Source: Candidatus Uhrbacteria bacterium
GTDB lineage: Bacteria > Patescibacteriota > Patescibacteriia > JACQRZ01
Direction: 5' to 3'
NCBI GenBank assembly: GCA_016206155.1
Contig: JACQSC010000001.1
Span: 5,105-69,104 of the forward strand
Length of the DNA: 64,000 nt
Positions 53,236 through 54,955 of the stretch are shown piece by piece. Both the position numbers and the translations under genes were made by a program. Within the stretch, counting starts at the first letter, position 1. Every line of letters begins with the position of its first letter. The notes under the pieces are model-generated. The model made no database searches, was not told where the DNA came from, and was given only the letters and a program-made list of their open reading frames with translations.

Positions 53236-54912
53236 ATGCTACACGATAATAAAATTTTGTCAAGATCTGTAAAAAATATCCCACCAAACTCTGGATGTTA
53301 TCTCATGAAGAATGCCGATGGCGGTGTTGTATATGTTGGGAAGGCAAAGCATCTCCGCAAGCGGGTAGCATCATATTGGCGCGCACGGGATTATAAAACA
53401 GTAGCGCTTGTCGCAGAAATTGCCGATATTGAAACAATTGTAACCGACACAGAGGAAGAGGCACTAGTTCTGGAGGCGCAACTGATACAGACCCATCACC
53501 CAAAGTATAATATAGACCTGCAGACCCCCGGGCGCTACGCATATATCAAGCTGACCAGAGAGGCGTATCCGCGTTTTGTGATCGCGCGCAAAGTAACAAA
53601 AGACGGAACATTTTTTGGCCCCTATCCTTCTGCCGCCACGCGCAATCAACTGTTGCGCAGCGCACACACGCTCTTTCAGCTCTGCTCTACAAAAAGAAAT
53701 CAAAAGCGGCCGTGCTTTCGATATTCGCTAGGGGCATGTGCGGGCGCATGCGCAGGAAGGGTATCAAAAGAGGAACATGCGCGAGCTATTGCATCGGCGC
53801 TAAGGTTTTTGCGCGGAGAATTTTCATCTTTGATACGCGAAACAGAGCACTTAATGAAAGATGCGGCAAAGCGCGAACAGTATGAGCAGGCAAAAATTTA
53901 TCGTGATCGCTTGCTCGCGTTGCGTAAGCGCGAAGAGCAAAAACTCTCTCAACCTAAACGGTATGACCAGGATATTGTGAATTATGTTGCAATAGAGGGG
54001 AGAGGTATGCCCTTGTCACTTGGGGCTCCCTTCGTCAAATCGCTCCAAGGACACACCTCTCCTCACGATCGCAACGTTCGGTGTCTTACTATTCAACTAT
54101 TCCACTTCAATCGCGGAATTATCTCTGGACGGAAGGAATTTACTTTTGATCTTGATGTCCTTGCGGTTGAGGGAGCCCACGAAGCGCTGCGCGACTTCAT
54201 CGTTCAATACTATACGAGCCATGCAATTCCAAGCGAAATAGTGATTCCGGAAGCTATTCCCGACTGTGAGCTTCTTGAGCGCTTTTTTTGTAAACAAAGC
54301 GGCCATGCAGTAACACTTGTCGTGCCGCAACGAGGGACAAAGAGAAAGTTACTTGAGATGGTAAAAAAGAACCTTCTTACCAAGCTCGGCGAGGGCGGCG
54401 GTCAGCTCTACGAACTCCAGCGTCTACTGCGATTGCCAGACCTTCCGCGCATTATCGATTGTATTGACATTTCGCACTTGAGCGGGACTGAAACGGTTGG
54501 TTCACTAGTTCAATTTATGAATGGTCAGCCAACAAAAGCAGGATACCGCAAGTTTATTATCAAAAACGTCAAGGGGAACAATGACGTTGCATCGATCCAT
54601 GAAGTGGTGACGAGATTTGCAAAACGTATACAAGAAGAAAAAGAAAAAAAGCCGGATTTACTGCTGATTGATGGCGGGAAAGGGCAGCTGAACAGCGCTT
54701 TGCGCGCACTTTCTGAATTACATCTTGAAGTTTCAGTCGCCGGTCTTGCAAAGCGCCTTGAGGAGGTGTATGTGCCAGGATCCAAGGATCCTCTCATGAT
54801 ACCTCCAAGAAGTACGGCTCTTCAACTCCTCCGCGCAGTTCGTGATGAGGCACACCGCTTTGCGATTACCTTCCAGCGTAGGAGGCGCCGGGGGCAAGGG
54901 ATAAGCCCTTGA
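53236..54912 (+). CDS. uvrC: excinuclease ABC subunit C
   Basis: GIY-YIG N-terminus (GCYLMKNADGGVVYVGKAKHLRKR); UvrC homology region; C-terminal HhH. Confidence 0.85.
   Translation: MLHDNKILSRSVKNIPPNSGCYLMKNADGGVVYVGKAKHLRKRVASYWRARDYKTVALVAEIADIETIVTDTEEEALVLEAQLIQTHHPKYNIDLQTPGRYAYIKLTREAYPRFVIARKVTKDGTFFGPYPSAATRNQLLRSAHTLFQLCSTKRNQKRPCFRYSLGACAGACAGRVSKEEHARAIASALRFLRGEFSSLIRETEHLMKDAAKREQYEQAKIYRDRLLALRKREEQKLSQPKRYDQDIVNYVAIEGRGMPLSLGAPFVKSLQGHTSPHDRNVRCLTIQLFHFNRGIISGRKEFTFDLDVLAVEGAHEALRDFIVQYYTSHAIPSEIVIPEAIPDCELLERFFCKQSGHAVTLVVPQRGTKRKLLEMVKKNLLTKLGEGGGQLYELQRLLRLPDLPRIIDCIDISHLSGTETVGSLVQFMNGQPTKAGYRKFIIKNVKGNNDVASIHEVVTRFAKRIQEEKEKKPDLLLIDGGKGQLNSALRALSELHLEVSVAGLAKRLEEVYVPGSKDPLMIPPRSTALQLLRAVRDEAHRFAITFQRRRRRGQGISP
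53999..54062. repeat. family C element: conserved 23-nt core TTGGGGCTCCCTTCGTCAAATCG flanked by an imperfect inverted repeat, in frame inside uvrC
   Basis: ggagaggtatgcccttgtcac-core-gctccaaggacacacctctcc. Confidence 0.7.
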
Positions 54913-54955
54913 GACTTGGGGCTCCCTTCGTCAAATCGTCTCAAGGGCTTATCCC
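54898..54955. repeat. family C element copy 2: same core with a different but perfectly complementary 18-bp stem, at the uvrC/dus junction
   Basis: gggataagcccttgagac-ttggggctcccttcgtcaaatc-gtctcaagggcttatccc; overlaps the uvrC stop. Confidence 0.75.

Follow-up and report, generated by a model that had tools for sequence, protein, structure and literature searches.

Why does the same 23-nt sequence occur inside uvrC and again at its end in a Candidatus Uhrbacteria bacterium, each time as the centre of a hairpin whose arms pair with each other while their sequence varies? The stretch of DNA analysed here, referred to as the window, comprises 64 kb from this member of the candidate phyla radiation (CPR, Patescibacteria) and is gene-dense and almost single-stranded. 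One copy of the element in question lies within uvrC and the other between uvrC and the downstream gene dus, which encodes a tRNA-dihydrouridine synthase. The results indicate that both copies probably belong to a propagating family of palindromic insertion elements. The element would be about 70-78 nt long, non-coding and hairpin-forming, its family confined to a narrow Candidatus Uhrbacteria clade, and it has no demonstrated host function. At least three landing sites were shown in the uvrC-dus region, namely a turn of UvrC (in frame), the uvrC/dus boundary and, in the related genome L031, the interdomain linker of Dus (in frame).

The two copies in the window

The 23-nt core TTGGGGCTCCCTTCGTCAAATCG was found at exactly two sites of the window, 54020-54042 and 54916-54938, as an earlier note on this DNA had reported; none is expected by chance. 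Both sites are on the forward strand in the same orientation, 896 nt apart, and when up to three mismatches were allowed no additional site was detected in the 64 kb. The two copies were also recovered in two independent Logan assemblies (L019, L020) of the same organism and are therefore not an assembly artefact. The gene uvrC (53236-54912, forward strand) is a 558-aa open reading frame (ORF) with GIY-YIG, UVR and two UvrC RNase H-like domains. In the database its product (P0001) begins 23 codons downstream of the start of this ORF, and the full-length 558-aa form is unrecorded. The true start of dus (54978-56012, forward strand), MSFWNNLKKPIMALAPM, was set to 54978 because the N-termini of homologues are conserved there.

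In copy 1, the left arm GGAGAGGTATGCCCTTG (53999-54015) and the right arm CAAGGACACACCTCTCC (54046-54062), both given for the forward strand, pair at 15 of 17 positions, and the core between them is read as LGAPFVKS in UvrC. Both mismatches are A.C on the forward strand and thus G.U on the reverse strand. Placed in the register of copy 2, copy 1 forms 18 Watson-Crick pairs and one G.T pair out of 24, with a 3x3 internal loop adjoining the core. The left arm of copy 2, GGGCAAGGGATAAGCCCTTGAGAC (54892-54915, forward strand), encodes the last six codons of UvrC (GQGISP) and the stop codon TGA (54910-54912). It is complementary at 24 of 24 positions to the right arm GTCTCAAGGGCTTATCCCTTGCCC (54938-54961, forward strand); positions 54916-54937 of the core form a 22-nt loop, and G54938 opens the right arm. 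The claim that each stem is complementary to its own partner was thus confirmed. In silico folding, which had been proposed as a check, gave z-scores of -9.0 (RNA) and -9.6 (DNA) for copy 2, and of -3.4 (RNA) and -1.9 (DNA) for the forward strand of copy 1.

The stems had also been said to differ completely, which is not the case. Between the two copies, identity is 16/24 in the left arm and 12/24 in the right arm, and GCCCTTG..CAAGG is common to both. The earlier note had held that a core embedded in a longer duplicated segment would speak against its proposal of a hairpin with a conserved loop. In part this was observed, as a repeat search returned the two copies as one 50-nt repeat with 84% identity. 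Because of the identity of the arms and this repeat, the copies are best read as homologous over about 70 nt, that is, as diverged versions of one element whose centre is the best conserved part. Across copies, the arms are 50-67% identical and the centre 83-100%.

Landing sites in uvrC, at the junction and in dus

The uvrC-dus region was compared in eight related genomes (L017, L018 and L029-L034), which were found via UvrC and Dus homologues. By identity of the UvrC C-terminus they include, together with the window, three sister pairs: window and L017 (82%), L018 and L030 (89%) and L029 and L031 (89%), with 69-78% in every other genome comparison.

All of copy 1 is contained in an in-frame insertion in uvrC at about 53991-54068 (forward strand), which was defined by a five-genome DNA alignment together with a protein alignment. 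The in-frame position had been recognized correctly in the earlier note; the added length is 78 nt or 26 aa relative to L017, the closest relative without the insertion, and not about 23 aa. In the AlphaFold model the inserted residues 255-279 have a predicted local distance difference test (pLDDT) score below 50 and lie between the strands 245-256 and 280-292, so that the insertion is predicted to form a beta-hairpin turn between the first two strands of the RNase H-like domain. The Pfam PF22920 match in UvrC begins only at profile position 14. The insertion was missing from the alignments of L017 and of every more distant UvrC homologue, and among the genomes compared the copy is complete in the window only. 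L018 has a remnant in which the left arm is kept (22/23 identical) and a 39-nt deletion took the core and the inner right arm. In L029 and L031, which have a 30-nt deletion in common, what is left is the right arm, preceded by the 10-nt 3' end of the core (CGTCGAATCG, in which one A is changed to G). For annotation, such insertions explain odd extra segments in conserved CPR proteins, and assemblies tend to break there.

The presence of copy 2 at the uvrC/dus junction was borne out by the position of the uvrC stop codon in its left arm; dus starts 16 nt past the hairpin. At the junctions of L029 and L030 there is no element. Here the ATG of dus overlaps the stop codon of uvrC (GTATGA) and the N-terminus of Dus is MNFW, a start that is present in more distant homologues, too. 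Judged by these sequences, the empty junction with its ATGA stop/start overlap most likely is the ancestral state. At this site the element was shown to replace that overlap and to supply the stop codon of uvrC; thereby, the boundary is rewired and an ATGA-coupled gene pair becomes uncoupled. A truncation of UvrC by copy 2 was also considered and ruled out, because the whole UvrC clade lacks a C-terminal helix-hairpin-helix (HhH) domain and normally ends just after RKRR.

The junction copies are of two types. Window and L018 contain a 'type B' copy, in which CCCTTGAGAC or CCCTTGAAAC precedes the core and GTCTC or GTTTC follows it, and the differences between these two include a G-C to A-T compensated pair. 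Of the right arm of the L018 copy, the first 6 nt are covered by the contig. The junction of L031 holds a 'type A' copy with flanks like those of copy 1. Its core matches at 20/23 positions and its fold is not significant (z +0.7), which in part provides what the earlier note had named as a second argument against itself, namely copies without complementary flanks. In L032, most of the core of the junction copy is gone. The hairpins at the junctions of L017 (z -5.8), L033 and L034 are unrelated to the element. Altogether, the junction element is polymorphic in all three sister pairs, one member having it and the other not.

L031 provides a complete third copy at positions 1813-1886, which follows GNPWLF in the Dus linker and keeps the reading frame; its 20-bp stem is perfect, and its core is changed at four of 24 positions. 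This copy and the junction copy of L031 have T>C and A>G core changes as well as the arm start GAGCGGGAG in common, and the A>G change recurs in the uvrC remnants of L029 and L031. A remnant with the core deleted occupies the same Dus linker site in L032. Three copies or remnants are present within the 2.2 kb of L031; the 64-kb window contains two copies, both at uvrC.

The Dus linker is an insertion hot spot in general, measuring 12-13 aa in about half of some 100 homologues and 20-70 aa in the others; in the window (55704-55811) it has 36 aa. Comparison of the element with the dus linkers of the window, L017, L029 and L030 revealed no significant similarity, the best match being 11 nt long with p ~0.005 before correction for 24 tests. 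The inserts at this site differ: L017 (11341-11472) has a hairpin with a 15-bp stem, L029 and L030 have a GGGGTCAAGG hairpin resembling repetitive extragenic palindromic (REP) sequences, and L031 has the uvrC-type element. The Dus linker of another protein, P0133, carries GTPLSLPLYAQTLQGHV, which corresponds to the arm peptides of the uvrC element around a different centre. In L032, the junction and the dus copy (1-82 and 794-904) are both coreless, and each shows 5-7 consecutive A where the deletion lies (TGAAAAAAATC, GGGAAAAAAGG). The A-run at both points may be a coincidence or may reflect a common deletion mechanism.

Pairing, loop conservation and competing explanations

When the three complete copies were compared, 9 of 26 stem pairs were changed on both sides. 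This value was matched by one of 500 shuffles, and slid registers gave 0-2 such pairs. Likewise, 84.6% of cells were paired, compared with 32-54% in slid registers. The two window copies by themselves are distinguished by five fully compensated pairs, and among four sequences, including partial ones, six pairs were changed on both sides (matched by 3 of 500 shuffles). Because 9/26 pairs are compensated across the complete copies, pairing is maintained during the drift of the arms, that is, the hairpin and not the arm sequence is kept. The loop is not entirely fixed, with three to four changes in the L031 copies and a deleted core in several relatives. Of the proposed conserved loop with compensatory stems, the covariation therefore stood and the invariance of the loop did not. 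Still, the evolution of the centre is slower than that of the arms: a 26-nt run from 54914 is identical in L018 and represents the longest exact match of the two uvrC regions, which otherwise have 70% DNA identity. This inverse conservation, with a conserved loop and a stem free to covary, offers a testable handle on substrate recognition by a mobilising or binding factor. Covariation alone is no proof of selection on RNA, since arm-to-arm templated correction can keep DNA palindromes complementary. The three single-transition mismatches of copy 1 showed no G.U bias on the transcribed strand (one on the forward and two on the reverse strand, at three sites only).

In the propagating element that we consider probable, the unit that spreads would be a single-stranded DNA hairpin. 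Given the slower evolution of the centre, the central loop of about 22 nt may serve as the sequence-specific determinant for a trans-acting DNA enzyme, while the stem would need only to pair; templated correction between the arms may add to the apparent covariation. Copies with perfect stems of 20-24 bp are taken to be the youngest. The remaining ones show lost stem complementarity, a mutated or deleted core or complete loss, and core variants are common to the copies of one genome. A regulatory site fixed at uvrC-dus agrees less well than a propagating element with the multiple sites, the patchy presence in sister genomes, the seamless empty site, the decay, the within-genome variants and the perfect stems of the presumably youngest copies. 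The same holds for a fixed protein-binding site serving uvrC and dus, a protein-binding site being one of the roles suggested earlier, as patchy presence, decay and the third site agree better with a propagating selfish or neutral palindromic element. Its landing sites, which are either flexible loops entered in frame or positions between genes, are the reason why the host tolerates the element.

Several observations weigh against a propagating family. Only five copies or remnant sets were found, all within about 2 kb of uvrC-dus, and the remaining 62 kb of the window has none, so that local copying or gene conversion might account for the pattern without dispersal throughout the genome. The core of copy 1 is identical to that of copy 2 at 23/23 positions despite the decay of orthologous copies elsewhere, which needs gene conversion or selection and is not predicted by a purely selfish model. 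To distinguish gain from loss at the junction would require a species tree. No target-site duplication was evident when filled and empty junctions were compared (L018 with L030, L031 with L029), the boundaries being ragged. Finally, an 18-nt piece of the core gave 12 matches in GTDB representative genomes and four in JGI metagenomes, all of them single, unrelated chance matches, and none in IMG/VR; several of these matches are located in hslU, where GGGGCTCCCTTCGTCAAA encodes GAPFVK. Other searches were similarly empty. A BLAST search of plasmids and phages with the element returned no match, the 32-aa element peptide matched only a spurious FG-GAP-like repeat protein among 1.84 billion protein representatives, and homologue look-ups with proteins of the window ends returned short Logan contigs only, with no further copies.

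It is possible, if unlikely, that the copies are a neutral by-product and no trans-acting factor is involved. An old insertion in uvrC would then have been copied locally by template switching or gene conversion, with complementarity of the arms preserved by quasi-palindrome correction, in which one arm is the template for the other at replication, and similarity of the cores by short-tract gene conversion between copies 0.9 kb apart. In quasi-palindrome mutagenesis, templated correction can yield perfect stems without selection. The confinement of every known copy to about 2 kb, at a spacing of roughly 800-900 nt and with no copy in the remainder of the window, is what such local copying would produce, and the core variants typical of one genome can be read as a sign of concerted evolution. 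Left unexplained are the stronger conservation of the centre than of the arms across genomes, the independent appearance at the same junction in non-sister lineages and the complete new copy with its own arms inside dus.

Rather improbable, in our view, is a selected cis-acting element of the host that would act on the uvrC-dus transcript or locus as a protein-binding, RNA-processing or stabilising hairpin, for instance as an RNase III-type substrate or as a site for a regulator. Such a role would agree with the perfect, extremely stable 24-bp hairpin at the junction, with a loop that is identical to L018 at 26/26 positions against a background of 70%, and with the identical core kept in both window copies. 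Furthermore, the unrelated hairpins at the junctions of L017 and of L033 and L034 raise the thought that some hairpin could be useful there. However, the element is dispensable: it is missing from the sister genomes L030, L029 and L017, and in L029 and L030 plain translational coupling of uvrC and dus is found instead. It decays in L031 and L032, occurs in frame in two different coding regions and, in the mismatches of copy 1, lacks the G.U bias that selection on a transcript would leave. Known RNA signals were not found either. Copy 2 does not have the features of an intrinsic terminator, which is a GC-rich, short-looped hairpin ahead of a U-tract, given its 22-nt loop, the CCCTAAAATACA that follows the stem and the lack of a U-tract; a terminator scan found nothing at 54892-54970, and no promoter-like site was detected at the hairpin. 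Rfam 15 gave no match at gathering score in the window, and at relaxed E-values only generic hairpin models of miRNA precursors appeared, with 15-21 bits compared with cut-offs of 65-90.

That the element mimics a tRNA, with a T-loop-like structure recognised by Dus or another tRNA-modifying enzyme in autoregulation, is very unlikely. The idea comes from the 3' half of the core, GTC(A/G)AATC, which we take to resemble a T-arm, whose sequence GTTC(A/G)AATC has one T more, with the A/G at the purine position of the T-loop; we regard this as a lead only. The motif is short and out of register, ARAGORN found no tRNA or tmRNA and Rfam no tRNA-like match, Dus acts on the D-loop, and the element is missing from sister genomes. 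Hardly credible is, finally, that the two hairpins bracket the 3' half of uvrC as a cassette, be it as recombination sites or as the two ends of an IS200/IS605-like unit: two similar hairpins on the same strand 896 nt apart formally look like the subterminal LE/RE hairpins around tnpA/tnpB, but the bracketed DNA is the conserved, syntenic RNase H-like/endonuclease half of UvrC, which is present in all relatives with or without hairpins, contains no transposase and is not transposase cargo.

A RAYT-like gene, related element classes and other features of the window

An HUH transposase had been named as a candidate partner of the hairpin, and the window indeed encodes such an enzyme. The gene at 16604-17293 specifies a 229-aa protein that, by Pfam and NCBIfam profiles and its motifs, resembles REP-associated tyrosine transposases (RAYT) of the Y1_Tnp (HUH) type. 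It matches Pfam Y1_Tnp with an E-value of 5e-17 and NCBIfam REP_Tyr_transpos with 70 bits, which is under the cut-off of 80 bits, and contains an HUH motif (HVH) and a Y..NP motif. Its homologues occur widely, in CPR as well as in further uncultured phyla, for the most part on very short contigs. On either side of the gene lies a 22-nt hairpin, AAACCGGTGTCAGGTCTGGTTT on the left (16552-16573) and its exact complement, in inverted orientation, on the right (17281-17302), the latter containing the stop codon of the gene. Many homologues end with ..NQT or ..NGT, consistent with a stop codon in the same CCTGAC motif.

These flanking hairpins have the loop GGTGTCAGG and not the core of the uvrC element, which counts against assigning this enzyme to it; a kinship of the two motifs was ruled out, as only the pentamer TGTCA is common to both. 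The HUH proposal consequently stood as far as the presence of a candidate enzyme is concerned and failed for the hairpin next to its gene. Because the window encodes a RAYT-like Y1 transposase, Y1/HUH enzymes of the IS200/RAYT type would be the most concrete candidate class for the mobilising agent that reads the loop, the one in the window presumably serving another hairpin family of the same design. We put this forward as a tentative suggestion.

Within the window there are 26 sites of the GGTGTCAGG motif where 7.9 are expected, which represents an enrichment; the motif also occurs in L017 beside uvrB and uvrA. Perfect palindromes resembling REPINs, which are composed of two inverted REPs, are located at 20720-20773, in frame in the ORF of an M20 peptidase, at 58365-58420, in frame in the interdomain linker of metG, and at 60026-60074, in frame in tatD. 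Their stems measure 23-25 bp, and each arm is itself a small hairpin with the loop G(G/T)GTCAGG, that is, the GGTGTCAGG motif, and a varying stem. Imperfect palindromes of this kind lie at 49981-50057, in frame in the 3' part of uvrB, and at 37805-37847. The GGTGTCAGG hairpins are a family of their own, HUH-associated and inserting in frame, with a conserved loop and variable stems, and distinct from the uvrC element. Because they are found in metG, tatD and the peptidase gene, in-frame palindromic insertions are a habit of this genome. CPR genomes are small and gene-dense, and at the uvrC-dus locus short palindromic elements are seen to persist in them, in frame in protein loops and linkers (UvrC, Dus) and at gene boundaries. 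What is notable about the uvrC element is its conserved loop and this in-frame habit in a CPR genome.

A loop-reading enzyme acting on single-stranded DNA in CPR, of the Y1/HUH type or similar, would be REP-like in its action but would have its specificity in the loop of about 22 nt instead of a GTAG foot and a conserved stem. Although doubtful at present, this proposal would account for in-frame insertion in flexible parts of essential genes and would allow seamless removal, which would explain the clean GTATGA empty sites in sister genomes. The GGTGTCAGG hairpins at the RAYT-like gene would then be a second case of the rule that the loop is conserved and the stem variable.

Among known systems, the element works most like REPs and REPINs, Rickettsia palindromic elements (RPE) and miniature inverted-repeat transposable elements (MITE), and deviates from each in its defining features; it was therefore grouped, as a new member, with the small non-autonomous insertion elements of palindromic build. 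REPINs are short, non-autonomous hairpin repeats with compensatory changes in the hairpin; their two inverted REPs form highly conserved ends around a less conserved central spacer with compensated changes (PMC3116915). A REP unit has a GTAG or GTGG tetranucleotide 0-2 nt 5' of a short hairpin, and insertions into genes at flexible loops or linkers are on record (PMC6006769). The uvrC element is likewise short, non-autonomous and hairpin-forming with compensatory changes, a RAYT-like gene is present in the same window, and the 24-bp stem of copy 2 is as long as those of the REPIN-like palindromes of this genome (23-25 bp). Its organisation is inverse, however, with a conserved centre and varying arms. 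Neither copy has a GTAG or GTGG at its foot; the closest GTAG (54877-54880) is 11 nt upstream of the stem of copy 2. In addition, cognate repeats flank a single-copy RAYT gene in inverted orientation, whereas the RAYT-like gene of the window is flanked by the other hairpin. REPs form many dispersed copies per genome; of the uvrC element, very few copies were seen in the 64 kb of the window and the 2.2 kb of L031. A literature search found no paper joining REPIN/RAYT-type elements with CPR/Patescibacteria.

RPEs are selfish palindromic repeats which enter unrelated protein-coding genes in frame, so that the proteins gain extra peptide segments where their structure tolerates them (PMC10969869). 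In the same manner, the uvrC element lies in frame in the UvrC turn and in the Dus linker and adds an extra peptide at a tolerated position. It differs in size (70-78 nt compared with about 100-150 bp), in the number of copies seen (2-3 per genome compared with tens) and in host (CPR compared with Rickettsia); moreover, it has no sequence relation to RPEs, no RPE having been matched in Rfam or in the BLAST of plasmids and phages, and the loop is its most conserved part.

With MITEs such as Correia/NEMIS, ERIC, RUP and BOX the element has in common the small size, the lack of coding capacity, inverted-repeat arms and presence/absence polymorphism, as well as the position at a gene boundary, where it can supply stop codons or alter operon coupling. 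In contrast to MITEs, which have target-site duplications and conserved terminal inverted repeats matching a parent insertion sequence (IS), it is least conserved in its arms, the window showed no parent IS and no target-site duplication was evident. The same design of a hairpin with a conserved loop is known from the origins of HUH Rep proteins in rolling-circle plasmids and in circular Rep-encoding single-stranded (CRESS) DNA viruses, where a conserved sequence lies in the loop and the stem is variable but paired. There, loops of 9-13 nt lie beside a rep gene on a small replicon, whereas the uvrC element has a 22-nt loop, is chromosomal and has no adjacent rep gene. Integron attC sites have R''/R' boxes (RYYYAAC ... 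GTTRRRY) at the foot of an imperfect stem with extrahelical bases; the stem of the uvrC element, in contrast, is perfect, has the bases GGGCAAGGG...CCCTTGCCC and lacks GTTRRRY.

Further features were observed elsewhere in the window. On each side of the RAYT unit lies one of two paralogous modules (about 15920-16100 and about 17372-17545), each with a hydrophobic ORF of about 40 aa (MPMSAIVQMIKKMNQEARCFFIIVVLMIIPANAGYGLTAR, MSGIAHMINNMIQEASRFFAFVIIMFLGSSAGHGLTTR) followed by a GC hairpin and a T-run, and the unit appears to be inserted between tandem copies of this small-ORF module. Downstream of a single 3,736-aa ORF (26565-37775) lie a GGGGTCAGG palindrome and, as a second hairpin, one with a perfect stem of 15 bp (37855-37888). 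Upstream of uvrC lie uvrB (48174-50186) and uvrA (50251-53055). The spacer between uvrA and uvrC (53056-53235, 180 nt) contains a strong terminator-like hairpin on the reverse strand (53160-53186), followed by TTTTATTT, as well as a perfect 16-nt inverted repeat (53090-53105 / 53212-53227) and the T-arm-like sequence GGAGTCGAACCCC. It may harbour a small RNA gene on the reverse strand; Rfam and ARAGORN gave no match there. At 62397-63263, one 288-aa ORF combines two domains that normally make up a two-gene type VII toxin-antitoxin pair, the antitoxin being an MntA-like nucleotidyltransferase and the toxin a HepT-like RNase, and is followed by a perfect 14-bp hairpin (63264-63297). Five heptanucleotide arrays with 4-5 perfect or near-perfect copies each were found at 3504-3533, 23970-24006, 38744-38779, 42181-42210 and 42884-42915. 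Their units are CTAACCC, CTAAACC (the plant-type telomere unit), AACTCGT, AGGGTTC and AACCCCA. The arrays that were inspected lie between ORFs and are reminiscent of the STRR heptamer repeats of cyanobacteria.

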